This document shows, one piece after another, positions 22,952 through 37,551 of a stretch of 64,000 bases of DNA (position 1 is the first letter of the stretch; the number at the start of each line of letters is the position of its first letter). Where the stretch lies: the NCBI GenBank assembly GCA_965223575.1, contig CBDCWZ010000010.1:1-64000 (forward strand), read 5' to 3'. The translations under genes were made by a program, and so were the position numbers. The stretch is from Kofleriaceae bacterium. GTDB lineage: Bacteria > Myxococcota_A > Polyangia > Haliangiales > Haliangiaceae. The notes beneath the pieces were generated by a model. The model was given only the letters and a program-made list of their open reading frames with translations. It was not told the origin of the DNA and made no database searches.

Positions 22952-23300
22952 GTGACCGGTCGGCGGCGAATCGGCAAAACTACTTTGATTCAGAAGGCCC
23001 TCGGGTCTGAACGGAAACACGGGGTTTTTTACATCCAAATTCCCGACTCAGGTCCTGCTGGTGTTCTGTCTGGAATTGCAGACGCTATGGATACTTTTGC
23101 GATTAATGAGGACGCCTTTCCTCGGCCAACGAATCTATCGCAGCTCGCCAGCATAGTGGGCCAACTGGCGCGCGCGGGCTATATTGTAGCGCTCGATGAG
23201 TTTCAGTATTTCAATCGTGCGAGACTGAAGGACTTCTGCTCACTGCTTCAGAGCGAGGTCGACAGACTATCGTCAGATGCCGAGAAGTATGCGCCCAATG
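22952..23300 (+). pseudogene. AAA ATPase (Arch_ATPase/DUF234 type), 5' part, interrupted by IS66
   Basis: Walker A GRRRIGKTTL and Walker B VALDEF. The reading frame ends at the IS66 boundary. Confidence 0.65.
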
Positions 23301-23377
23301 CGCCCCATGTAGCATGAATCATCTGGCGGCAGTATTGTCGCTACATGGAACCATGCGGTTCAACAAACTCGATCGGT

Positions 23378-24973
23378 TTATTCCTGATCGACAATCTTCT
23401 CAGCGAGCCATTGAGCAGGGGTAGCGGTTCTCAGCTGGTTGGCGGAGATGCCGGCGGCGATTCTGTGAAAGATGTCTCTGAGATACTCGTAGGGGTTGGC
23501 GCCGACAAGGGTGCAGTTGAGCACAGCAGTCATGATGGTGGCGTAGCGTTGTCCTGCTTCGCGAGAGCCGACGAAGAGTGCATTTTTGCGAACCAGCGTA
23601 ACGATCCGGAGCGCACGCTCGACATGGGCATTGGAGATCGGCACCGAACCGAACTGCAAAAACAGGCCCAGGGCTTCGCGCTGCCGAGTCCAGTAGGTAA
23701 GCGCTTTGGCCAAGGGGGTACGAGATTTCCTCTGTTGGGCAAACTTGGCAACATAAGCATCGATGTCCGCAATCATGGCAACAGAATGTTGTTGACGAAG
23801 CGCGAGGCGTTGTTCGTCAGTCATCTGGTTGTCCTGGGCGTAACGCTCCACCTGATACAGTCTTGCCATCAAATCGATGACTGGTGCAGCTCGTTTGTCA
23901 CCACTGTCGAGCGCATGAACAAATTTTCTACGCGAATGGTCCATACAGCCAGCCTGCCGTGGTGGGGCCAATCCTCGATAGAGTTTTTTGATTCCCGCAT
24001 ATCCATCATGTTGCGTGTTGCCCTGAAATTCGGCGAGAAGTTTACAAGGGTAAATCCCTTTCCAGTCCGGCGAAAATTCACAATACGCGGTCCGCCCGCG
24101 ATCGCCCAAATAGATCCAAAATCGCCCACGCTGAATGTTTTTGGGATGGGCAGGATTTTGCATTGGCATGGGGGTATCGTCAAAGCTGATCAGTGCGCTC
24201 TTGAGTAGGTCTGTCTTGGCGCCTGGGTTAAAAACGGATAACAGCTCGGCCCCTTGCGCATACCACTGTCCCAATGTTTTGTCAGATAGCTCGATCCCGC
24301 GTCGCAGCAATGCGGTGCTTTGACGATACAGAGGCATCGCGTCGCAGACTTTGCTCGTCATGATTTGCGCCATCAGGCTGGGGGTTACCACGGAGCCTGG
24401 GATCAGTTTGGGCGTTAAATTCCCGCTGACAATGCCGTCTTTGCAGTCACGACACGCGTATTTATGAGCGCGTTCTTCGCGGACGAAGGCATGTTGCTGG
24501 TTCAAATTCTAGGTGCACTGTTTTGTCGAAACCAATGTGGTCCTTTTCGCGATTGCAGCCATTACAGTGGCGTTCCGAATCAGGGGGATGTTTGTCGTCG
24601 ATCACTCGCTCGAGATTGTCTAAATTTGTGGTCCGCTTCTTACGCTTTTTTCTCTTGTGAGCAGGAGTCTTCGATCGTTTCCTTTGGTAAGTCCGAAGGC
24701 CCCCTCGGCCACCATGTATTCTAGGAGCGCGAGTGACAACTGAGCCGGGGAGATTTTTTCTGAGCTCGGACGATATTTCGACGCAATCTGCCTCCGCATA
24801 CCATCGATTTCTTGTTTCATGCGCTCAATGATCGGCATGGCTTCGGCAAGAACTTCTTGGCCGGCTTCACGCTCCTTGTCCGTTGCCAGATTGGCAGTGA
24901 CCGAAACAAGAAATTCGTGAATCGATGCCGTATCGATAGAGCCTTCCCACGTCCCCACACCTCCTTGTATCAC
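23378..24973 (-). pseudogene. IS66 TnpC transposase, at least 2 frameshifts
   Basis: Catalytic part 23378-24505 (..MPLYRQ...DDTPMP..GRFWIY..). N-terminal coiled coil 24620-24973. The zinc-finger segment between them is in another frame. Confidence 0.7.
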
Positions 24974-25734
24974 GCGTGTCCGACATTCTCACCTTTACGA
25001 AACTCTTGATTGCGATTGTTTTTCCGCGAAGAAGTTTCGCCAAATCCTCTGCTTTGATCTCGATCGTGTTCCTGATCTTGTTTGGGAATCGGAAATGTCC
25101 CAGACTCAAGTCGCTTCGCCAAAATGCAATATCCCTGCTGATCAAAAAACAAAATCTTGAGCAGATGACGCCGACGATTGGCAAATACGTATAGATGGCC
25201 GGTTTCTGGATCTGCGTCCAGCGCTTCACGAACAACCTTCGCAAGACCATCAAACTGTTTCCTCATGTCAACAGGATTCACTGCCACAAAAACGCGGACC
25301 TTCGTCGGTAGCGTTAACATGAGCCATCCAGAGAGTTTGCCCACTCGCAGACATTCTCGCCGATCCGACTTGGAACAAAACAATAAACGCCTGCCGTTTT
25401 TGAGAACGAGCTCGTAGCGGGGTTCTCCGCTCAAAGCAATCTCGTCACGAACCTTTACTTCAACAAATTCTGTCTGGCCAGATTGTTTTTCACGCCTCTG
25501 CCAACTCCATAACGCAGACGCCGAGATCCCATGATGTTTGCCAAATTCTACCGCAGACCGATTGCTCTTCTGCCATGCGCGGAGAATCTTTCGCTGCTCT
25601 GCACGACTTCTTTGAATCCGTTTTTGCATTCCATGCGGTTTAACTCGACAGGCTGCTGCGCGAAACATGGGGCTCACGGGGCGCATACGCCGAGAACGTC
25701 TCTGGGGGGACTGCTCGTTCTGGGATCCATTCAC
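24970..25734 (-). CDS. IS66 TnpA (HTH) and TnpB (Orf2) read as one frame
   Basis: AVEFGKHHGISASALWSW (TnpA), then LPTKVRVFVAVNPVDMRKQFDGLAKVV...LYVFANRRRHLLKILFFD (TnpB). Confidence 0.7.
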   Translation of the reverse strand: MNGSQNEQSPQRRSRRMRPVSPMFRAAACRVKPHGMQKRIQRSRAEQRKILRAWQKSNRSAVEFGKHHGISASALWSWQRREKQSGQTEFVEVKVRDEIALSGEPRYELVLKNGRRLLFCSKSDRRECLRVGKLSGWLMLTLPTKVRVFVAVNPVDMRKQFDGLAKVVREALDADPETGHLYVFANRRRHLLKILFFDQQGYCILAKRLESGTFPIPKQDQEHDRDQSRGFGETSSRKNNRNQEFRKGENVGHA

Positions 25735-25739
25735 ACCGA

Positions 25740-26743
25740 GATGTCCACGCTTCTAGAAGATCGGAGCGCTCCGTTATTCAATCGCACCACCGACGAAATC
25801 GCGCTATCTCACCTGGACGTTGGTTCCCTAATCAAATTGCTGGACGCGCATACTGATTCGACGCCAGAGCGACTGTTATTTCTTTGGAATATGTTCGAGG
25901 GAGTGCCGAAGTTTTATCGCGACTGTTACGAACAAGGAGTAATAGATGAGGATCGCAACAAACTGCTAAAGCGGGTTTTCTTTCAGAGTTCGTCTCCACT
26001 CAGAACCGAAGCCGATAACTGGTTCTTGAAAGAAATCCACGGACGCTATGATGTGGTGCTCAAATTCATCCGCGCGAAATGGTGGTTGCAGCCATGGAGA
26101 ACTCGTAACCCACGTTCGTAACGTTAGTGGCGAAGAAAGTGAACAGGTTGGCGGCTATCTGAAGGGGTTGATAGAGAAGTATGGACTAATCGAGAAGAAG
26201 CTACCCATCTTTGCAAAACCAAAAGCACGCAAGGGTCGATATTACATTTCCGATAACTTCCTGCGCGCATGGCTGGCGGCTATTGCAAATCAGGTGGCTG
26301 CACTCAATTTCGTTCCGGCGGACAAACTCATTGCAACAACAAATGATCGCCTTGCGGAAGTTGAAGGATTCGCTTTGGAGAAACTGGTTGGGCAGATCTA
26401 CGAGGAATGTAGCCGCAAAGGAGTGGGCGATTTCCTTTTGTCCGACCGAGTTCAAGGTTTTTGGGATCGCAATGACACGGAAATCGATCTCGTGGCTCTC
26501 AATGAAACAGAGCGTCGGATCAGATTTGGCAATTGTAAGCGATCAGCCACAAGACTCGTTGCTGATTTCACAAAATTCGACGGCCATGTCGCACGATTTC
26601 TTAAAGCTCACAAAAAGTACCAAGATTGGACTGTAGAAAAAGCGGCTATCGCACCGACTATCCCGCCGGGAATCCGAGAAGTCATTCTGTCTCACCAGTA
26701 CCTTGCTCAGGATCTAAATGATTTAACTCGTCCGTTACGGTAG
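25740..26743 (+). pseudogene. AAA ATPase (DUF234 type), 3' part, with an additional frameshift near 26.08 kb
   Basis: ..RYDVVLKFI.., then GGCSHGELVTHV...KGRYYISDNFLRAWL...TEIDLVAL in a second frame. Confidence 0.6.
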
Positions 26744-26999: not shown

Positions 27000-28024
27000 T
27001 CATCGGCTTCCTCTCGAATAATCGCAAAACGCTTGGGTGCACCCAAATCCTCCGCTCCCAGCTCCGAGCAGCGGAAGCGCCACCGTCCGTGCTCCCAACC
27101 AGTGTGCCAGGCGAAGGGATGACTGCGCCGCTTGTCTGATCGATTGCTCCGACGCTCGCCACGCCAGATCAATCGCGTCGGCGTGGATCACCCACTTCGC
27201 CGCAAGCTGGCCGGCGTTTGTTTCCATGGCGTTGCCCAGCGGCAGTGGGCCTGCTCTGCCGGCGGCCGCAATGACTGCCCGCCCGCCCGCACTGCGGATC
27301 GCCCGCGCCACTCCCTGGGGTATGACAAGCCACGGAGGGATGAGATTTCGATTCCACGCGTTCACGATGGCATCGACTTCGCGAGCGGCGATATCTCCCT
27401 CAACCTCGATGATCTCGGCCCGGGTGGCGCTCACCGCCTCCTGAACGGCGAGTCGATCTGCCAGCCAGACGAGGGAATCGCGATGCTGAACTGTGCCCGC
27501 CCACTTCTCAGGGAGGGCTAGGACTCCGATTTGGGCGCCGATGCACGCCGCTACTGTGGCACCAATGCTGTCGGTATCTCCGCCTGCGCGGAACACTGCA
27601 TTCATCGCAGCCTGAATATCCGTGCCGTGATCGAGGAGAGTGTGAACCACGGCCGACATGCAACCGCAATGGTAAGCTGTGTATCGTCGGATACATCTCC
27701 GGGACGGCGCAAGAAACGAATTAGGCCCCGCCGCATTCGTACTGCACCAGGATAACGAAGTCGAGTCATCCAACGCGGTAGGCTCTCCGCTGGCAGGTTG
27801 AGCGCATCACCGACACCCAGGCCAACCAAGCAACCACGGCATCGATCGATGCGCTCACTCACCTCGCGAGAATCGGTTGGTTCAAGCTCCGGGTAGGCGT
27901 GTCGAGCCCAGCGAATTCGGCACGCCGCCACGAAAGCTCTCCAAACAAGATACCCGGCGCTGACGATCCACAGCGCCGTGAAGGCGAAGCGCACCAAGTC
28001 CACCGTCATTGTGCTCCCTCCCAA
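27000..28024 (-). pseudogene. ADP-ribosylglycohydrolase (ARH/DraG-like) fused to a macro domain, frameshifted near 27.65-27.77 kb
   Basis: N-terminal CLVGLGVGDALNLP...SDDTQL (frame of 27602-28024). GGDTDSIGATVAACIG, then macro motifs NAWN...GNAMET...LPLLGAGSGGF (27000-27773). Confidence 0.65.
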
Positions 28025-28154
28025 CGCCTGATGCCCAGGCGCTCGCTCGTTTTCCGATCCGATATCGGAAATACGCTCGGTCGCCCGGACTTTGGCCAGT
28101 GATCATGCAGCTCTACATACTTTTCCGTGCGGAGGTTCATTTGGATCTTGCCTT

Positions 28155-28194
28155 TGTGTACTTGGTACATTAAGCTATGTGTATAGAGTACACA
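28155..28194. promoter_or_regulatory. Two candidate operator palindromes TGTGTA-N5-TACA(C/T)(A/T) in the divergent intergenic region
   Basis: tgtgta-cttgg-tacatt (28155-28171) and tgtgta-tagag-tacaca (28178-28194); 11 nt upstream of the NrtR-like ATG. Confidence 0.4.
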
Positions 28195-28204
28195 ATAAGA
28201 AACC

Positions 28205-28894
28205 ATGACTGTTACCTACAAATATCCGCGCCCCGCTGTCGCGGTCGATTGTGTGGTCTTTGGTGTCGATGATGAGGACCTAAAGGTACTCCTGATTCAA
28301 CGAGATCTGAAACCATTTGAGGGCTCGTGGGCGCTGCCCGGCGGCTTCGTTCACATGGACGAAGGCCTCCCCGATGCTGCTCGTCGCGAACTCAAAGAGG
28401 AGACGGGCCTCGGGCGTGTGTTCCTGGAGCAGCTCTTCACCTTCGGCGCCGTCGACAGAGATCCGCGAGGCCGCGTCGTGTCGGTCGCCTACTACGCGCT
28501 GGTGCGGCTTATGGATCATAAGGTTCAGGCCGCCACGGATGCCCGCGACGCGAAATGGTTCCCCGTCTGGGACACGCCATCACTGGCGTTCGACCACGAG
28601 CGGATCCTGCAAACAGCTCTCGACAGGCTCAAGGGCAAGGTGCGTTATCAGCCCATCGGCTTCGAGCTCCTGCCCAAAAAATTCACCTTGAGTCAACTCC
28701 AAGGCCTCTACGAAACCATCCTGGAGCGCGAGCTCGATCGGCGGAACTTCCGCAAGAAAATCCTGTCCATGGACATTTTGGAGGAGCTCGATGAGGTTCA
28801 GGAAGGCGTCGCCCACCGTGCGGCTCGCCTCTATCGCTTCAACGAGCGCAAATACAAGAAGCTCGTCAAAGCGGGCTTCGACTTTCAAATTTGA
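28205..28894 (+). CDS. NrtR-like regulator (Nudix domain plus C-terminal winged helix)
   Basis: Nudix box [25 protein letters not shown] terminus ..[28 protein letters not shown].. Confidence 0.75.
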
Positions 28895-28903
28895 GGAATC
28901 AAC

Positions 28904-29401
28904 ATGTCGCAGATTTTATACAAGACAGGTGACGCAACTCAGCCCACGACCACCGGTTGCAACATTATCGCCCACATCTGCAACGACCTTGGTGGCTGGG
29001 GGAAGGGGTTTGTCGTAGCAATTTCTCGGCGTTGGCCTGGGCCAGAGAAGGAGTATCGACGGTGGCATGCAGAGAAGTCGCCTGCGTTCGAGCTTGGGGC
29101 GATGCAACTCGTAGCGGTCAGCTCCACACTTGCCGTGGCGAATATGATCGCGCAGCGAGGAATCCGTAGCACATCGGATGGTCCTGCCATTCGGTACGCG
29201 GCCCTTCGAACATGCCTCGAGACGCTAACAGATCACGCACAGCGTCTCCGTGCCAACGTGCACATGCCCCGCATCGGGTGTGGTCTTGCTGGAGGAAAGT
29301 GGGAGCAGATCGAACCGATCATCAAAGATACGCTAATCGCTGGGGACGTCTCGGTGCATGTCTATGACTTCGCACCATCCGGTCCCGCGAGAAAGGAGTA
29401 G
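28904..29401 (+). CDS. Macro-domain protein (ADP-ribose / O-acetyl-ADP-ribose processing)
   Basis: GDATQP...[16 protein letters not shown]...[12 protein letters not shown] pattern. 10 nt after the previous stop. Confidence 0.7.
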
Positions 29402-29404
29402 ACA

Positions 29405-30430
29405 ATGGCAGAGATCAGAGACTTCGGGATTGTTCGGCACCTTCGGGCGGATCCGACTTCGCACATCATCAAGTACAAGAAGGGCCAAGTGCATCGAGCG
29501 GGTCGTGGTGGCGCCCTGTGGTTCTTGCCGATGTCTACGGCCCTGGCGGAAGTGCCGGTCGATGATCGCGAACTGTCGTTCCTGTTCCATGGTCGGTCTT
29601 CGGACTTCCAGGACGTCACGACCCAGGGTGTCATCACCTACCGGATCGCAGCGCCTGAGACAACGGCCGACCGGATTGACTTCAGCATCGACCTCCGCTC
29701 GGGGGTTCACCGGAAACAACCGCTAGAGAAGCTGGCGCTGTTTCTCAATGAGCTGGCCCAACAGTTTGCCTGGGCCTACGTGGTGCGAACTCCGGTTCGC
29801 GAGCTGCTCGTAAGCGGCCAGGAAAAAGTTCGCCAGGACATCATGGCCGGCTTTGCGCAAGAAAATGGGCTGGCGGACCTGGGCATCGAGATCGTCTCGA
29901 TCCGCGTGTCATCCATCAAGCCAACCGCCGACCTGGAGAAGGCCTTGGAGACCAAGACGCGGGAAAAGATCCAGCAAGAGGCCGACGAGGCGATGTTCGA
30001 GCGCCGCGCCCTGGCTGTGGAGAAGGAGCGTGCCATTGCCGAGAACGAGCTACAAAACCAGATCGAACTCGCGACTCGAGAAGAGCAGCTCATCGCCCAG
30101 CAGGGACAAAACGAGAAGCGACGCATCGAAGAGGGGGCCGAGGCCAAGAAGATCGCGGCGCAGGCGGAGGCGGAGCGAACAGAGATCCAGTCTCGCGCCA
30201 AAGCTGGAGGGATCCGGTTCGTGGAGAGCGCAAGAGTTGCGGGCGAGCGCGAGCGCATGGAGATCTACCGGGACTTGCCACCCGCCGTAACCATGGGGCT
30301 CGCGGCCCGCGAGCTTGCCGGCAAGCTCCACAAGATCGAGCATCTCAACCTGTCGCCGGATCTGCTCGGACCGTCGCTGCTGAACCTCATGAACCTCGGC
30401 GCCAAGAAGCTAGATCCGGCAGACGGGTAG
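29405..30430 (+). CDS. SPFH/band-7 family protein
   Basis: Band-7 core (..[20 protein letters not shown]..) and a long Glu/Ala/Arg coiled-coil tail. Confidence 0.65.
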
Positions 30431-30437
30431 CCAAAGG

Positions 30438-31337
30438 ATGAAGGGAAACAAGGCGCCCAGGGTCGTGGTAGTGACGCGGCCAACTCAATACGACGAGTTG
30501 ATCGCTCGCCACGCGACTCGGCAGCAGGCGGAGTTCTTCCTCAAAGGCCGGGGACAATCGCTGGAGTCCGTGGACCGTGCCCACCAGCTCTGGCTCTCTG
30601 CTGTCGAAGCCATTTCGCAGGCGATACCTGTGTCGTGGCGGAGGTCTGCGGTTTCCCGCCTTGACCTCAATCGGTTCGTCTTCGAGCCCAGCGACCTTGT
30701 TGTCGCTGTCGGCCAGGACGGCCTTGTGGCTAACGTCGCTAAGTATCTCAGCGGACAGCGGGTCGTCGGCATCAATCCAGATCCTGAGACCTACGATGGC
30801 ATCCTGGTTCCGCACCAGCCCAGTGCCCTCAAGCGGCTGTTTAGGTCGGTGAAGGATGAGCGATGCGAGATCGAGGCGCGGTGCATGGTCTCTGTGACCG
30901 TCGATGACGGCCAGAAGCTCCTTGCGCTCAATGAGCTCTTTCTCGGGCATCGCACTCACCAGTCGGCGCGATACCGAATTGGCTGGGCAGGAACCGAGGA
31001 AGTACAATCATCCTCGGGGCTCATTGTCACAACCGGGACCGGCGCCACAGGCTGGGCTCGGTCCATTTGTCTGCGGCGCATCGATCCACCACGGTTGCCA
31101 ACACCGACAGAAGCGAGTCTCGCCTTCTTTGTGCGTGAAAGTTTCCCAAGCGTTGGCACAGGGATCGCAATCCAAGACGGACTGATCCCGCAACCCGAGC
31201 AACTGAACGTCGTCTCGCAGATGAACGACGGCGGAGTCATCTTCGGCGACGGGATCGAGAACGACCGAATTGACTTTCACTGGGGCATGACGGCCAACAT
31301 TCAGGTGGCGGATGTACGCCTACAACTCGTGCGCTAG
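30438..31337 (+). CDS. NAD-kinase-like (ATP-NAD kinase fold) protein
   Basis: VVAVGQDGLV (GGDG-like), NELFL, SSGLIVTTGTGATGW (GSTAY-like) motifs. Confidence 0.6.
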   Translation: MKGNKAPRVVVVTRPTQYDELIARHATRQQAEFFLKGRGQSLESVDRAHQLWLSAVEAISQAIPVSWRRSAVSRLDLNRFVFEPSDLVVAVGQDGLVANVAKYLSGQRVVGINPDPETYDGILVPHQPSALKRLFRSVKDERCEIEARCMVSVTVDDGQKLLALNELFLGHRTHQSARYRIGWAGTEEVQSSSGLIVTTGTGATGWARSICLRRIDPPRLPTPTEASLAFFVRESFPSVGTGIAIQDGLIPQPEQLNVVSQMNDGGVIFGDGIENDRIDFHWGMTANIQVADVRLQLVR

Positions 31338-31344
31338 GAGAACC

Positions 31345-32283
31345 ATGCTGCTGCAGCCAATATCAACCCAACTATCAAAGGCTCGCCGGATTTTGCTTGC
31401 GGGCTGTGGCGGCGGATACGATGTGATGGGAGCGGTTCCACTGTTGGTGGATCTTCTAGCGGCCGGGCACGATGTCGCGCTGGCCAACCACTCATTCTCC
31501 AATCTGGCGGATCTGCCGCGCGTACTCCAGGACGCCGAAGTTGATTGTCTGTATGAGGTGCCACCGTCAGCCGCCACGTCGGACAGGTATTGCCCGGAAG
31601 CTTGGCTTGCGCGATGGTGTGCGGAGAGACTTGGGAGGGAGGTCCAGTCGTGGGCCTTCGCCAAGAAAGGCTCGCGACCATTGCACGCTGCCTACCAACG
31701 GCTTATCTTCGAGCATGACTTCGATGCCATCGTTCTCATTGATGGAGGCATTGATGCAATTTTGCGCGGCAATGAGTCCTCTCTTGGGACACCCGCAGAG
31801 GATCTCGCTTCTCTCGCGGCGGTTTCACGACTCGATGTGCCCATCAAACTCATCGGGTGCGTTGGGTTTGGCGGCGAGATGCGCGATGGGATCTGCCACG
31901 ACCAAGTGTTCGACCGCATCGCCGAACTTACGGCACTCGGCGCGAACCTAGGCAGTGCCACGCTCCTCGCACAGACCTTGGCGGGACAGCGCTACCTCGA
32001 GGCGGTGGATTACGTGTTCGCCAACCAACAGGGCCAGCGCACCAGCCACATTCACAAGGTTGTGAGTGCTGCCGTCCGTGGCGAATCGGGCAGTCGCGGC
32101 GAGCATGTCTGGCTCTCGCCACTCCTCAATCAGTTTTGGTTCTTCGACCTCATGGGCGTCACCGGCAGTCATCTGTTCCTAGAGCATCTCTGGGACACGC
32201 AGGAGAGCTGGGACGTCTCGGCTCGTATCGAAGGACTCCGCAAAGGCGTGGACATCTTGCCTCGATCGAGGATTCCGATCTGA
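31345..32283 (+). CDS. DUF1152-like protein
   Basis: ILLAGCGGGYDVMGAVPL N-terminal motif. taggag RBS overlaps the previous stop. Confidence 0.45.
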   Translation: MLLQPISTQLSKARRILLAGCGGGYDVMGAVPLLVDLLAAGHDVALANHSFSNLADLPRVLQDAEVDCLYEVPPSAATSDRYCPEAWLARWCAERLGREVQSWAFAKKGSRPLHAAYQRLIFEHDFDAIVLIDGGIDAILRGNESSLGTPAEDLASLAAVSRLDVPIKLIGCVGFGGEMRDGICHDQVFDRIAELTALGANLGSATLLAQTLAGQRYLEAVDYVFANQQGQRTSHIHKVVSAAVRGESGSRGEHVWLSPLLNQFWFFDLMGVTGSHLFLEHLWDTQESWDVSARIEGLRKGVDILPRSRIPI

Positions 32284-32298
32284 TGAATCAGCACCATC

Positions 32299-32562
32299 CT
32301 AGATCCCTAGCGCTACGCATTGGAGCGCGGATTTGAAACGCCAATGCGACGAGGTTTCAAGACCATCATCTTCGTGGCCGTCAATCACGGCGATTCCGGC
32401 TAGATGGGCACGATCGAGATTCGTCGTAAGCGGCACGACTAGAACCGATTGTAGTGCTCGGATGAGGGCATCACTCTGCCATACCACCACTGGGCGTCTG
32501 CCTGTTTGCTCAAGTGGACGATGGGCACCGAGATCAGCCCACCAGATTTCGCCGCGCTTCAT
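32299..32562 (-). CDS. MazF/PemK-family toxin (full length)
   Basis: MKRGEIWWADLG....EQ.GRRPVVV.QSD....L..V.VVPLTT. Confidence 0.7.
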   Translation of the reverse strand: MKRGEIWWADLGAHRPLEQTGRRPVVVWQSDALIRALQSVLVVPLTTNLDRAHLAGIAVIDGHEDDGLETSSHWRFKSALQCVALGI

Positions 32563-32790
32563 CTAGCATCTTCTTCAGCCAGCATCTCGCACCACTCATC
32601 TATTCCTTGATCAGCAAGGACCATATCCTCTTCCTCACCAATCTTGGCGAGACGATTTAAGTCGCGGGATCGGGACGGCGAAGCACGATCGAAGAGACAC
32701 GCTCTCCATGGCTAAGATCTAGACGTTTGCCGGGCTTGAGCACACCGTCACGGTATTCAGCTTCAATTGGCTTCACAGTCAATAGGTTAC
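32559..32790 (-). pseudogene. DUF104-type antitoxin paralogue, frameshifted
   Basis: VKPIEAEYRDGVLKPGKRLDLSHGERV.., then the C-terminal EDMVLADQGIDEWCEMLAEEDAR in another frame. Confidence 0.5.
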
Positions 32791-32939
32791 CATGTTCCCA
32801 AACTGCGGGCCATCGCCGTGATTTGGCCCTAGAAAAAGCAACAAAAACGAGAGGTTCAAACCGTCTCCGAAAGCGGCGCAGAGCGTGATTTTTCCGGGCT
32901 AGTCCTCGATTGGGCATAGACGGGGAATTCCAACAAACG

Positions 32940-33075
32940 ATTCGCCACACACACTACAACGCTTTACGTTCACACCAATCAAGGTAACGCGAACGCCCTG
33001 GGCATCGTACAGATAGTTTTCTCTTGCAGACTTCAACTGCCCGTCACAATGTATGCACTTCATGTCCATCTCCCC
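32940..33075 (-). pseudogene. MqsA-like antitoxin N-terminal fragment
   Basis: nt similarity to 9620-9746 (MDMKCIHCDGQLKSARENYLYDAQGVRVTLIGVNVKRC..). Confidence 0.55.
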
Positions 33076-33542: not shown

Positions 33543-34661
33543 TCATGTCCCCTTGTAGACCAGCACTGGTTCCAAACGCCGGACGATGCGTGTAAGCGTT
33601 TTCTGTGCCCGCATTACTTTGTTGATGTTCTTATAGGCCCCGGGAGCCTCGTCTCGCAGACGGCCCGCGATGCGGTGATCGAACCAGATGCCAGTCATCT
33701 GCTCGACCAGTTTATTAATGCTGATTGCTCTTCGAGCCTCGGTTCGGCTGAGGCAGCGACCAGCACCATGAGAGCTTGAACACAAAGACTCGACATCGCC
33801 CCGGCCCTCAACGTGAAAGCTGGCACTACCCATTGATCCGGGGATAATCCCCGGTTCTCGTAAACGGGCTGAGATAGCCCCTTTGCGGTGAACCCACAGC
33901 AGTCGATCTTGGTGTTTCTCCTGTCTAACGAAGTTGTGATGACAGTCAAAGTACGACTCCCACCGTGCAACGCTGCCGGTGACGTCTTCCAACCTGCGTG
34001 CGACGACCTCGGCCATGCGCCGTCGACTCAGCCGCGCATAATCAAGAGCCCACTTGAGATCGTGCAAATAGGCTTGCCCAAGCGACGAATTCGCAGGCAT
34101 CGAGCGTAGACCTCCGTCGGCACCACCATGATGTTCACGGATACCCTGGCCGATCCCACGGGATCCGCTGTGCACCATCAACCACAGCGCGTTCTCGGCA
34201 TCGCGTTGAAATTCGATGAAGTGATTTCCGCGCCCCAGTGTTGCGAACTGCGTCCTAGCGATTTTGGTTTTCTTCTTTTCCAGAGACGACACCGACAGTT
34301 TTCGACTGGCTAGCTCGTCGGGAAGCCTTGCGTTGACTGATCTGTGACTCGACGTAGGCACTTGATTCGCCAGCATCGTGAGCACGCGAGCCGCCATAAT
34401 TCGGTCGTTTAGAAGGTTCGCGTCAGTATCAAATCGCAGCGCCGACATCCCACAACCAATATCGCCTCCCACGGCATCGGGAAAGAGATGGCTGTGCGTT
34501 GCGACGACGGTACCAACGCACACCGCTTTGGCAAGATGTACATCGGGCATCACTGCGACCACAGCGACGTCCTGCAACTCCGCGATCCTATCCAGCGCCC
34601 TGCGAACGTCCGCTGGTAGCGCGTCATGGGTCCACGTTCGGACAGGCATGCGGCTACTCAT
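33543..34661 (-). CDS. rtcB: RtcB RNA 3'-phosphate/5'-OH ligase
   Basis: MPDVHLAK...GGDIGCGM, GRGNHFIE, HSGSRG.G, GSMG..S, SSSHGAGR motifs. ATG at 34661 with GGAGG 8 nt upstream. Confidence 0.85.
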   Translation of the reverse strand: MSSRMPVRTWTHDALPADVRRALDRIAELQDVAVVAVMPDVHLAKAVCVGTVVATHSHLFPDAVGGDIGCGMSALRFDTDANLLNDRIMAARVLTMLANQVPTSSHRSVNARLPDELASRKLSVSSLEKKKTKIARTQFATLGRGNHFIEFQRDAENALWLMVHSGSRGIGQGIREHHGGADGGLRSMPANSSLGQAYLHDLKWALDYARLSRRRMAEVVARRLEDVTGSVARWESYFDCHHNFVRQEKHQDRLLWVHRKGAISARLREPGIIPGSMGSASFHVEGRGDVESLCSSSHGAGRCLSRTEARRAISINKLVEQMTGIWFDHRIAGRLRDEAPGAYKNINKVMRAQKTLTRIVRRLEPVLVYKGT

Positions 34662-35082
34662 TGCCAACCTCCTGTTCCCAATTCCCGTCACTCATCGCCT
34701 TCGCTGGAACAACCGTGAAGCGCAGCATCGGGACGCGCTTACGGTTGATGGCCTTGGCAACTTCGCTGCGAAAATAGCCGGCTGCTCGATCCAATATCTG
34801 ATGCATCCCCTCATAGTCATAGTCTCCTTCTGATGTGACCAGCACCCGCAACTGTGCAGCACCTCCCTGTGGTTCCACGGAGGCGACGTAGACACCCCTA
34901 AGAAATGGATTGGCGGAGCACGCGAGAGCGATCGCAATGGCCTCTTCTACCTGCCTGCAGAGCTGGATTGTTTTGGTATCTACCCTGTGAGGGTCAGAAA
35001 ATACGGATTCTTCTTCGTTACTTGAGCCAACAAGGCCCTCATACGCGCAATCATTTCTGCGCCGTTTCTTGCGTGAAGTCAT
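34654..35082 (-). CDS. RbfA-like (ribosome-binding factor A fold) protein with a basic N-terminal extension
   Basis: R....LCRQVEEAIAIAL......L.GVYV.SVE......L.V.V.....D.......L..A.GYFRSEVAKAI..KRVP.L.F pattern. Its stop overlaps the rtcB start (ATGAGTAG). Confidence 0.5.
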   Translation of the reverse strand: MTSRKKRRRNDCAYEGLVGSSNEEESVFSDPHRVDTKTIQLCRQVEEAIAIALACSANPFLRGVYVASVEPQGGAAQLRVLVTSEGDYDYEGMHQILDRAAGYFRSEVAKAINRKRVPMLRFTVVPAKAMSDGNWEQEVGNE

Positions 35083-36177
35083 GCTTCTCCCATTGCGTGG
35101 CAGGCAGACGCCAGCCACACGTCATCAATCAGACGTTTTCAAACGGGTCTCAAATCCGGCGTCAACCCTCTCAGGGACACCGTGAGAGCTAGAAGACGCG
35201 GGAAGTAAAACCCACGAACGAAAGCATGTTGGCAAGATCGGACATGATGGCCTCCTGTGGTTCTTTTAAGATACCGGCACATCGCCGATTTGGCAAGCAG
35301 ATTCTACTAGTGCGATCAGATCTCGACTGGTCTCGGCAAACAGATGTACCCGTGGCCGGGTCCGATAAGAGCGTTAGCGAGCCGGCAGGCGAAAACCGTA
35401 GCGGTAACCCTGGTCAGAATAGCGTAAGGATTCGACCTGGAATCGAGCTGGAAAGTCAGTTTCCAGCCGTTTTAGAAACTCGGTCAGGCGAGGCCCGTTG
35501 CGGTCAGCGAGGCGGCGATTGTCACCGGGGGGCAATAAACGATTTGGAAATGTCAAAATCACCTTTTTTTAGTCCTAGTTGGGTTAAGTGGAGCTAAAAC
35601 TGGTAGCGTTGATTGAGTTTTTGAGGATGAACAAGTCAAGAACTACATTGAGATCGAGCGTATTCCGTACATACTTGTTAGTCTTATCGCTTGCATGGAT
35701 CTCGTGTGGGCGAGTTGGCTTTGATGCTACGGCAATAGACGATCGTAGCAACCGCGATGCCGGAGACACGAATATTCAAGTCACGGATGGCCTGGTTGCC
35801 CGCTACTTGGTTGCGGGAACGGGACTCACCGACGAATTTGGCGATGGCCCTACCGGAACAAATCCTAGAGCAGGCATCCTTAGGACGACGCACCCATAAG
35901 TTACGAGAAACTTCTTGCGTTTTGCGTCGATTTCGCTAACCTAATTGAATCTCCATTGTCGGGGAGCCAAAGAACATGATTGCTTCGTACTTCATTTAAT
36001 CCCTCCTGCCAAAGCGAACTGTCCAGTTTGATTTAGGCGTCGGCATCACGAGCACAACGTGCTCATTGTTGGTGGCGACATGAGGTTCAGCGGATTCATC
36101 GTTGCAACGCGCGCATGTTTGATCGCAGGTGCGCAAACGCCGAGATGTGTCTGCTGGCGCAGGAGAAGGATAAGCAG

Positions 36178-37551
36178 ATGAAGTTTAAGTCAAAACCGAT
36201 AGAAGAGCATCTCGAAGTACCGCTTCCCGACGATGGTCGTTGGGAGGAAATCGTCGCCCATTGGGCACGACGAGACGGCTCCAGGGCCACAACAAACAAC
36301 GAAAACAATTTGTGCTACGTCGTTGCCGTCGCGCTGCGAGATGAGCTTGAACCACGCGGAAGTCTCGCCGAGCTCATGAGTCTTGTGCGCACCCAGGGTG
36401 ATGCCATCGTAGGTCATGAGACCCACCGCGTAAGCAAGCCCAATCCTCGCTTGCTTGTCGGTGTCGGGACCGCCAAGGATATCGGCCAAAGGGCTACCGA
36501 ATGTGGCGCAGATATGCTCGTGATTGACGCCGAGCTCAGTCCCTCACAAACGCGCAACCTCGAAGACGCGACCGGATTTGCAGTCTGTGATCGTGAGGCG
36601 GTCATCCTCAATGTATTCCAGCGCCATGCAAAAACGCAGAAAGCTCGGATTCAGGTTGAGATTGCACATCTCGAATATCTCCGACCGAGGATCCGTGGCA
36701 TCGGATTGGTGATGGACCAACAAGCAGGTGGAATGGTGAACAGCCGAGGGTCAGGCGAGACCGCCTCCGAGCTCCTGGCCCGGCGGCTCGACGGCCGATT
36801 GGCCGTGCTGCGTAAGGCATTCAGCAAGCTGGCTAAATCTGGAACCGTTCAACGCCAAAAGCGCACGACGTGCAAACGAATCGTCTTGGTCGGGTACACA
36901 AACGCTGGAAAGACCTCACTGATGAACACCATGACCTGTGCTGGGCTGTCCGCAGCCGACCGACCGTTCGAAACATTGGACACTACCTCGCGCTGCTTAA
37001 CGCGGCACGGTGGAGATGTCCTCGTCAGCGACACGGTTGGTTTCATCCGCAATTTGCCTGATCGTCTATTCGCCAGCTTCGAATCGACCCTGTCTGAGAC
37101 ACTAGAGGCATCGCTACTCGCGCTGGTTGTCGATGCTTCTGATCCAGAACGCGAGTTGCATTTGCGAACCAGTGAAGAGCTCCTGGCCCGACTCGGTGCC
37201 GATAAAATCCCTCGGCTGTATGTGTTTAATAAGATCGACCGTCTCAACCTTCAACCTTATCAGGACAGCTTAGATAACCTGAGTCGAGGTCACGAGCACA
37301 TTGCCGTTTGCAGCCACGAGGCTGGAGATGTCGCACGACTCAAGGAGACGCTGTTGCGGCTGGCCCGGCAAGAGCAACAAGTCTGTCGCGTATTCCTCTC
37401 GTACGCATCGACAAAGGCGATTGCCACCGTCTATGCCAAGTGCCGTGTGATCTCGGTAAAGTCAACACAGGACGGGCTTCAGTTCACGATCGCCGGAGAA
37501 CCACACGTCGTTGCCAAGATTCGGTCAGCGAGCGAGGAGATACAACAATGA
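36178..37551 (+). CDS. hflX: HflX GTPase
   Basis: LSPSQTRNLE, VILNVFQRHAKT..A..QVE.A.L.Y..PR, GYTNAGKTSLMN, DTVGFI..LP..L...F..TL. Confidence 0.85.
   Translation: MKFKSKPIEEHLEVPLPDDGRWEEIVAHWARRDGSRATTNNENNLCYVVAVALRDELEPRGSLAELMSLVRTQGDAIVGHETHRVSKPNPRLLVGVGTAKDIGQRATECGADMLVIDAELSPSQTRNLEDATGFAVCDREAVILNVFQRHAKTQKARIQVEIAHLEYLRPRIRGIGLVMDQQAGGMVNSRGSGETASELLARRLDGRLAVLRKAFSKLAKSGTVQRQKRTTCKRIVLVGYTNAGKTSLMNTMTCAGLSAADRPFETLDTTSRCLTRHGGDVLVSDTVGFIRNLPDRLFASFESTLSETLEASLLALVVDASDPERELHLRTSEELLARLGADKIPRLYVFNKIDRLNLQPYQDSLDNLSRGHEHIAVCSHEAGDVARLKETLLRLARQEQQVCRVFLSYASTKAIATVYAKCRVISVKSTQDGLQFTIAGEPHVVAKIRSASEEIQQ

Follow-up and report, generated by a model that had tools for sequence, protein, structure and literature searches.

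An NrtR-headed operon with a conserved SPFH and NAD-kinase-like gene pair in a Kofleriaceae bacterium

The operator of the NrtR family of repressors has been described as a ~21-bp palindrome, built around GT-N7-AC and located upstream of the regulated genes, and the original survey of the family (Rodionov et al., 2008, Table 1; PMC2330246) lists a two-gene target, written '#nrtX-nrtY' or 'nrtR<#>nrtX-nrtY', in Streptomyces, Kineococcus, Frankia, Proteus mirabilis and Hahella. The pair was listed as NrtR-regulated with unknown function and a '?' for its pathway, and the paper is silent on what nrtX and nrtY encode. Here we describe a five-gene operon headed by an nrtR gene in a 64,000-nucleotide stretch of DNA from Kofleriaceae bacterium (assembly GCA_965223575.1, contig CBDCWZ010000010.1, positions 1 to 64,000; hereafter the window). 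As in the 2008 regulon, NrtR and palindromic GT-N7-AC sites precede an nrtX-nrtY pair; the window differs in that nrtR lies in the same operon, a macrodomain gene is placed between nrtR and nrtX, and a DUF1152 gene is appended.

A second set of related systems was described by Iyer, Burroughs and Aravind (2022; PMC9503650), who defined ARG-centred de-ADP-ribosylation systems regulated by Nudix or WYL proteins. The logic is alike: a proposed ADP-ribose-sensing repressor of the Nudix-helix-turn-helix type turns on the erasers, and the Macro and NADAR accessories vary. However, those systems comprise an intact ARG together with a phosphatase and a chaperone, whereas the window locus has a remnant of an ADP-ribosylglycohydrolase (ARH), neither phosphatase nor chaperone, and an invariant core of SPFH and NADK-like proteins; a term search of that paper returned no mention of Band 7 or NADK.

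A conserved SPFH and kinase-like gene pair under probable NrtR control

The five plus-strand genes (Table 1) are separated by 9, 3, 7 and 7 nt according to their open reading frame (ORF) coordinates. A first-pass annotation of the window, made from the sequence alone, had read them as one tight operon headed by NrtR, and this was supported except that it gave the first gap as 10 nt; its calls of NrtR, macro, SPFH and DUF1152 domains were likewise confirmed by Pfam (NUDIX plus NrtR_WHD, Macro, Band_7 and DUF1152). The five genes are a real operon headed by nrtR, with the operators just 5' of it.

A scan with the kinase-like protein, taking one genome per species, yielded 80 loci from Myxococcota, Planctomycetota, Acidobacteriota, Actinomycetota, Gammaproteobacteria, Sericytochromatia and other groups, with which the window proteins were compared by tblastn. 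The SPFH gene was immediately upstream of the kinase-like gene and on the same strand in all 76 loci evaluable for adjacency, with a median distance of 1.5 nt between the SPFH stop and the kinase start. An NrtR gene was present within 3 kb in 45 of the 55 loci fully evaluable for it; it was upstream and co-directional in 37 of these, downstream in six, divergent in one and further away in one. A Pfam census of 136 flanking ORFs showed no further recurrent partner (methyltransferase families, 4; ARH, 2; NAPRTase, 1). Given the conservation of the SPFH and NrtR genes and the lack of any other recurrent partner, the conserved unit is therefore NrtR, SPFH and NADK-like, and the set of five genes elaborates this nrtR-nrtX-nrtY module in a lineage-specific way. 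The first-pass annotation had proposed joint conservation of DUF1152, NADK-like, SPFH and macro genes as the test of its module, and the full set proved not to be conserved. It had also seen no known role for SPFH and DUF1152 in NAD chemistry; the SPFH gene, however, is no stray member but the tightest partner of the kinase-like gene. The kinase-like family is large (> 7,800 database clusters matched in one search) and slowly evolving; 25 aligned homologues from several phyla are 58–84% identical to the window protein.

The P. mirabilis locus (L093) consists of a NUDIX gene divergent from an SPFH-NADK-like pair with GTGT-type intergenic sites, which equals the nrtR<#>nrtX-nrtY layout of 2008; the same layout is present on Moraxella pNP7-1 and Rhizobium etli p42f, where RefSeq names the kinase 'hypothetical protein' or 'sugar kinase'. 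Because the P. mirabilis arrangement matches, we infer that nrtX is the SPFH gene and nrtY the NADK-like gene, and these names are used below. Our literature search found no study later than 2008 that gives nrtX or nrtY this meaning, and no paper combining SPFH and NAD kinase. The 'uncharacterised module' of the first-pass annotation is thus not new in its core, which was listed in 2008, although no later study of it was found.

The first gene product has a Nudix fold followed by a C-terminal winged helix (Pfam NUDIX, 77 bits; NrtR_WHD, 104 bits) and retains an intact Nudix box (GX5EX7REUXEEXGU). Its best PDB match is BtAraR (5bs6, E 5e-60), followed by Shewanella NrtR (SoNrtR; 3gz5, E 9e-34), and in alignment its recognition helix, RRNFRK, is nearly identical to K179-R180-N181-F-R-K184 of BtAraR, which reads GTGT (PMC4666351). 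Matches to GTGTA-N5-TACAC with up to one mismatch occur twice in the whole 64-kb window, both upstream of nrtR and 23 bp apart. This count is not rare by itself, as at least two matches were obtained in 9 of 100 shuffles; the significance of the two palindromes comes from their position and cross-species conservation. Tandem GTGT-N7-ACAC pairs spaced 22–26 bp apart were found in the window and in 11 other loci: L010, L011, L028 (two pairs), L060 (three sites), L083, L052, L061, L035, L036, L093 and L094. They precede the operon in all loci with an NrtR sharing at least 50% identity with that of the window (L010, L028, L060, L083, L052, L061, L035 and L036); in L011 they are present though nrtR is not adjacent, and in the Proteus and Moraxella loci they lie in the divergent intergenic region. 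Based on the GT-N7-AC core of the family, the tandem layout at orthologous operons and the BtAraR-like recognition helix, the two palindromes, proposed as candidates in the first-pass annotation, are very probably NrtR operators.

A larger NrtR clade, 40–50% identical to the window protein, has ATATGC-N5-GCATAT palindromes instead. Allowing one mismatch, TATGC-N5-GCATA occurs at 3.04 per kb in the regions preceding the operon's first gene by comparison with 0.008 per kb in the rest of the loci, and GTGT-N7-ACAC at 1.43 versus 0.141 per kb, so that the clade-specific palindromes are 10- to 400-fold enriched upstream of operons. Two NrtR clades serve one SPFH-kinase pair (upstream regions L013–L092) and the operator type tracks the clade; the window-type clade has a perfect Nudix box and the majority clade a degenerate one (R-V-L-x-x-K).

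A compact example is L028 (1–7900, a Myxococcales metagenome-assembled genome), in which a NADAR gene is divergent from nrtR-pncB-nadE and a second operator pair is followed by Nudix-pncA (isochorismatase)-SPFH-NADK-like, with operators preceding both units. The arrangement amounts to an NrtR-controlled cluster for NAD salvage with nrtX-nrtY inside it.

NrtX and NrtY proteins

A phmmer search of the PDB with NrtY retrieved human mitochondrial NADK2 (E 2e-9). The AlphaFold2 model of NrtY (pLDDT 90.9) had the same protein as its top Foldseek match (TM-score 0.78, E 4e-21), and all of the top 50 matches were NAD(H) kinases. A profile of the NrtY family scored better with NADK2 (E 4e-16) than with bacterial NADKs (E 1e-6), and the N-terminal ~80 residues align to NADK2 alone. 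The GQDG and SSGLIVTTGTGATGW motifs that the first-pass annotation read as those of an NAD kinase are present in the fourth gene product; the PDB match, weak NCBIfam matches and predicted fold agree with that call. The family retains the catalytic Asp of the GGDG-type motif and, in 85 of 88 sequences, the NE motif; it has a Ser and an invariant W206 in SSSG...TGTGATGW, G(I/V)NPDP (with Pro instead of Thr/Ser) and an extra invariant motif, FGDGIE. In the C5orf33 clade, Ser and Trp replace the Asp and Tyr of classical NADKs and the corresponding motif is GxN(T/S)DP (Ohashi et al., PMC3535332). By sequence, fold and signature residues, NrtY is a predicted kinase of the NADK2/C5orf33 branch.

With human NADK2 and plant NADK3, NrtY shares the N-terminal helical segment, the NE motif, the Ser/Trp signature and GxNxDP. 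It differs from NADK2 in having GQDG in place of GGDG; in lacking the metazoan dimerisation insert (PMC9245612); and in being bacterial, cytoplasmic, paired with an SPFH gene and NrtR-controlled. A 2019 phylogeny left the provenance of the eukaryotic NADK2/NADK3 clade unresolved (PMC6675116), and the resemblance of NrtY to NADK2 may help to trace where the mitochondrial enzyme came from.

NrtY is found on plasmids and in Proteus, and its role is evidently accessory to that of the housekeeping NadK; such hosts are expected to have a nadK of their own on the chromosome. Homologues were present in 71 records of a plasmid collection, some of them adjoining tet(H) or tet(J). The NUDIX<>SPFH-NADK-like module adjoins tetR(H)-tet(H) on Moraxella osloensis pNP7-1 (L094, 3115–7862) and tet(J) in P. 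mirabilis (L093, 2163–6849). Four records, two from uncultured bacteria and one each from M. osloensis and Acinetobacter lwoffii, had equal tblastn values (39.5% identity, E 6e-59), which suggests a shared mobile segment.

NrtX scored 51.6 bits with Pfam Band_7 (cut-off 23.6). It has no hydrophobic or transmembrane segment, the maximum 19-residue Kyte-Doolittle mean being 0.88, and no sequence relative in the PDB at E up to 0.01. Operon pairings of SPFH proteins with a partner are known for HflK/C-FtsH, stomatin-NfeD and flotillin-NfeD2. As in these, the nrtX gene is tightly coupled to that of a partner enzyme, but NrtX is without a membrane anchor and its partner is a soluble kinase rather than a protease or NfeD protein. 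The nrtX-nrtY entry, which has carried its question mark since 2008, thereby gains a concrete identity as a soluble SPFH protein and a predicted NADK2-type kinase in strict adjacency.

Proposed role and competing explanations

We favour the reading that this is an autoregulated NrtR operon, derepressed by ADP-ribose, for NAD(P) homeostasis and de-ADP-ribosylation, and not a recognised defence system (probability roughly 0.55). An NrtR dimer on the two tandem, promoter-overlapping operators would keep the operon off; consumption of NAD+ by ADP-ribosyltransferases, NADases or sirtuins would release free ADP-ribose, and binding of this to the Nudix domain would release the repressor. The macrodomain would then remove ADP-ribose from DNA thymidines and proteins, giving the sensor more ADP-ribose, and NrtY would phosphorylate NAD(H) to NADP(H), such that the NADP(H) pool stays in step with NAD turnover or is shielded from it. 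NrtX may be an oligomeric scaffold or regulator of NrtY, by analogy with SPFH operon partners; DUF1152 is perhaps a hydrolase or ligand-binding protein; and the decaying ARH-macro gene would probably supply at most a free macro domain. The emphasis on NAD(P) homeostasis is based on the SPFH-kinase coupling, the slow evolution of the pair, neighbourhoods that are housekeeping-like and non-recurrent, the pncA, pncB and nadE genes of L028, the lack of PADLOC matches and the absence from phages.

Several observations weigh against this interpretation. NrtY has no Pfam match, so the PF01513 threshold is unmet, and it scored only 12–30 bits with NCBIfam NAD kinase models that have cut-offs of 211–470. 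The phosphate-binding and catalytic loop, examined in 88 sequences, reads GQDG in 81, GPDG in five, GRDG in one and GGDG in none; with GQDG in place of GGDG, the substrate or phosphoryl donor of NrtY may therefore differ from NAD or ATP. On the sensor side, the ribose-binding triad R33/R85/H131 is kept in the window NrtR and its R88 is the equivalent of the ADP-ribose-contacting Arg98 of SoNrtR, a Gly in AraR (read by alignment against PMC4666351). However, the SoNrtR phosphate contacts Asn43 and Lys76 are Leu and Glu in the window protein, which scored 175 bits with the NCBIfam NtrR equivalog (cut-off 400). Two of the SoNrtR contacts are thus replaced, and by sequence the window NrtR is nearer to BtAraR, which senses arabinose, than to SoNrtR, which senses ADP-ribose; ADP-ribose is therefore a reasonable but presumptive effector. 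Making NADP from NAD during NAD depletion is moreover not obviously adaptive; and the swapping of macro, NADAR and DUF4291 genes, the SIR2-like neighbours and the carriage on plasmids have a conflict-system flavour.

A rival reading makes the operon an anti-toxin or anti-phage conflict module. It would be kept off until ADP-ribose is generated by a foreign ADP-ribosyltransferase or NADase, after which a swappable eraser would repair the targets and NrtX-NrtY would serve as effectors that might, for instance, sequester or convert the NAD pool or target a signalling nucleotide. In close relatives the nrtR-nrtX slot does hold analogous ADP-ribose domains, SIR2_2 genes come after the operon in both L007 and L010, toxin-antitoxin and insertion sequence (IS) elements flank the window locus, and some of the 71 plasmid-collection records place the module beside tet(H) or tet(J). 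The macrodomain SCO6735 protects against DarT toxicity (PMC9411070), and eraser operons regulated by Nudix transcription factors have been proposed as counter-ADP-ribosylation immunity (PMC9503650). Against this, PADLOC v2 returned no match for the SPFH protein, NrtY or DUF1152, and only weak matches of the Nudix protein to PDC-S07 and of the macro protein to DarG; the first-pass annotation had suggested this check. Its NAD and ADP-ribose theme is real. The core genes match no defence-system model. NrtY and NrtX are 55–60% identical across phyla and so evolve slowly, whereas conflict systems typically evolve rapidly; the flanks consist of varied housekeeping genes, among which no defence neighbour recurs; L028 places the pair among pncA, pncB and nadE; and there were no homologues of NrtY among 50,697 phage records. 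We therefore regard a dedicated defence system as less likely and this explanation as a whole as rather improbable, with a conflict role possible at least for the accessory genes. Somewhat less probable again is that NrtY is not an NAD kinase and instead phosphorylates ADP-ribose or a related breakdown product, in salvage or detoxification like the chemistry of phage NARP1, with the Nudix, macro and DUF1152 enzymes acting on that metabolite as well. The second Gly of GGDG is replaced in all 87 sequences with the motif, FGDGIE is an additional invariant motif, NrtY is under every curated NAD-kinase threshold, and the regulatory and accessory components all point to ADP-ribose rather than NAD. 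The NE motif is nonetheless kept, the Ser/Trp signature, GxNxDP and whole fold match NADK2, which is a proven NAD kinase, and the 50 nearest structural neighbours are without exception NAD(H) kinases.

A chance juxtaposition of five unrelated genes with fortuitous palindromes would accord with DUF1152 being mostly alone in unrelated contexts and with the frequency of paired matches in the shuffles. It is already contradicted by the recurrence of the triad and operators across phyla, by the 3–9 nt gaps, and by the four-gene block from SPFH to DUF1152 that, with NrtR upstream, recurs in L007; we consider it very improbable. A bolder version of the homeostasis reading, which we hold only tentatively, takes NrtX-NrtY as a bacterial device, widespread and induced by ADP-ribose, whose NADK2-type kinase is under the control of a soluble SPFH assembly, with NrtY as the missing prokaryotic sister of NADK2/NADK3. 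The device would rescue or shield pyridine nucleotides during NAD+ consumption by ADP-ribosylating toxins, NADases or damage responses, with lineage-specific erasers (macro, NADAR) plugged into the switch. Were NrtY a second, inducible NAD(H) kinase, ADP-ribose would trigger a route to NADP(H) in bacteria, and this would bear on NAD-depletion immunity, toxin defence and oxidative stress. The window version shows recruitment of predicted DNA and protein ADP-ribose erasers to the same switch.

Accessory genes, the divergent remnant and the surrounding window

The macro protein (165 amino acids) matches PDB 5e3b over its full length (E 1e-53, ~60% identity). The entry is labelled only 'Macrodomain protein' and is SCO6735 of Streptomyces coelicolor (PMC9411070), which reverses DarT-type thymidine ADP-ribosylation of DNA as well as protein mono-ADP-ribosylation (PMC9411070; PMC5087735). 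SCO6735 activity requires V25, N27, Q85 and G128, and in an alignment read against that work (PMC9411070) these correspond to I25, N27, Q84 and G127 of the window protein, which is thus a predicted SCO6735-type ADP-ribose eraser. It differs from SCO6735, a stand-alone DNA-damage-induced gene, in lying inside an NrtR operon, and of the two DNA-binding lysines one has been lost (D92). A role as the DarG antitoxin of a DarTG system was rejected: the protein is SCO6735-type and 165 amino acids long compared with ~330 for DarG with its C-terminal toxin-binding domain, its neighbours are nrtR and nrtX, and DarT is absent nearby; DarG models match only its macro part, at 31–39 bits (NCBIfam cut-off 250). 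The position it occupies is a variable accessory slot that holds a macro gene in the window and L011, NADAR in L007, DUF4291 in L010 and Nudix plus PncA in L028; among close relatives the macro gene is replaced or simply absent.

DUF1152 was rejected as an anchor of the cluster. A search gave 394 homologues, and of the six contexts examined the four with 54–67% identity were unrelated; only the 91% and 79% identical relatives keep the operon link. The former is in L007 (NrtR, NADAR, Band_7, a 299-amino-acid protein, DUF1152, SIR2-like) and the latter in L008 (SPFH, in brackets in our gene order, then a 290-amino-acid protein and DUF1152). DUF1152 has thus joined the operon in the nearest relatives alone. 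Its fold is Rossmann-like and closest to LmbE/PIG-L deacetylases, the zinc motifs of which are His-x-Asp-Asp and HxxH; this zinc motif is absent from DUF1152, which has an invariant GCGGGYD after strand 1 and not (A/P)HPDD. No paper mentioning DUF1152 was found in our literature search. Downstream of the operon, where the window has a MazF cassette, SIR2_2-domain genes are located in L007 (3954–4496) and L010 (5042–8457), and in L010 a 556-amino-acid protein with no Pfam match also follows.

The divergent gene, annotated at first pass as an ARH-macro fusion, is not intact. Its halves are in different frames, and a 257-amino-acid ORF (27000–27773, minus strand) contains ARH profile positions 234–286 and the macro domain, while positions 60–233 are absent; the public gene call, P0241, starts with an ATG at 27659 and its 219 amino acids are 100% identical to residues 39–257 of this ORF. 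The nearest full-length ARH-macro homologues are 509–563 amino acids long. The N-terminal remnant is 52% identical to residues 3–124 of a 509-amino-acid homologue (P0242) and the C-terminal remnant aligns to residues 271–481 of the 509-amino-acid homologue. Between these two aligned parts ~146 residues of the ARH core have been deleted and a frameshift has occurred, so the divergent gene is a remnant left by both events. In L096 (3067–5221) an intact 509-amino-acid ARH-macro homologue is preceded, with a 17-nt overlap, by a DUF4291 gene; a recent prediction makes DUF4291 an atypical ADP-ribosyltransferase (PMC12522546). The two genes resemble a writer-eraser pair, of which the window keeps just the decayed eraser.

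Table 1. Features of the nrtR operon and its surroundings in the window
Feature	Coordinates	Strand	Basis
AAA_22/DUF234-type ATPase gene, interrupted by IS66-family element	22952–23317 and 26048–26743	+	
IS66 transposase	23378–24505	-	
IS66 Orf2/TnpB	24970–25734	-	
ARH C-terminal remnant and intact-looking macro; 219-amino-acid ORF, frame differs from N-terminal remnant	27000–27659	-	Pfam
N-terminal ARH-macro remnant: hydrophobic leader and ARH profile positions 1–59	27602–28024	-	Pfam
NrtR operator 1 (very probable), TGTGTACTTGGTACATT, imperfect palindrome, GT-N7-AC core	28155–28171		motif match
NrtR operator 2 (very probable), TGTGTATAGAGTACACA, perfect 6+5+6 palindrome, ends 11 nt 5' of nrtR ATG	28178–28194		motif match
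nrtR, Nudix and winged-helix repressor, clade A, Nudix box intact	28205–28894	+	Pfam, PDB match
Predicted SCO6735-type (ALC1-like) macrodomain ADP-ribosyl hydrolase, variable accessory slot	28904–29401	+	Pfam, PDB 5e3b
nrtX, soluble SPFH/Band 7 protein; C-terminal half long, charged, helical	29405–30430	+	Pfam Band_7
nrtY, NADK2-type NAD(H)-kinase-like (GQDG, NE, SSSG...TGTGATGW, FGDGIE)	30438–31337	+	PDB phmmer, NCBIfam, Foldseek
DUF1152 protein, lineage-specific addition, Rossmann-like fold	31345–32283	+	Pfam
MazF/PemK-type toxin ORF, convergent with DUF1152, 16 nt apart	32299–32562	-	
AF2212-like ORF, upstream of MazF-type ORF on the toxin's strand	32657–32950	-	
RtcB RNA ligase	33543–34691	-	
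RbfA-like ORF, under Pfam cut-off	34654–35118	-	
HflX-type GTPase	36115–37551	+	

The flanks described at first pass, an IS66-split AAA/DUF234 ATPase gene upstream and a MazF-type toxin with an AF2212-like gene downstream, were confirmed. The GC content of the operon is ~60% (56–62%) against a window average of 55% and does not stand out clearly against other stretches; it is lower, at 47–54%, in the upstream IS66/ATPase stretch (21–27 kb). The window NrtR and NrtY are 92% and 82% identical to those of L010. The L010 NrtY protein has a record for Haliangium ochraceum too, and the H. ochraceum NUDIX hydrolase shares a 90%-identity cluster with the window NrtR. The relatedness to L010 and an operon GC content above the window average are compatible with lateral transfer of the module. 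A terminator scan was uninformative (8 sites versus 5.1 ± 2.2 expected), and a sigma-70 promoter scan made no call within the intergenic region upstream of nrtR; by eye only, a weak TTGCCT-17-TAAGCT is shared by the intergenic regions of the window and L010. RtcB, encoded further downstream, is an RNA-repair enzyme. Phage RNA-repair gene neighbourhoods (sirtuin, 2H, Nudix, cRec, tRNA ligase) are also covered by Iyer et al. (2022; PMC9503650).

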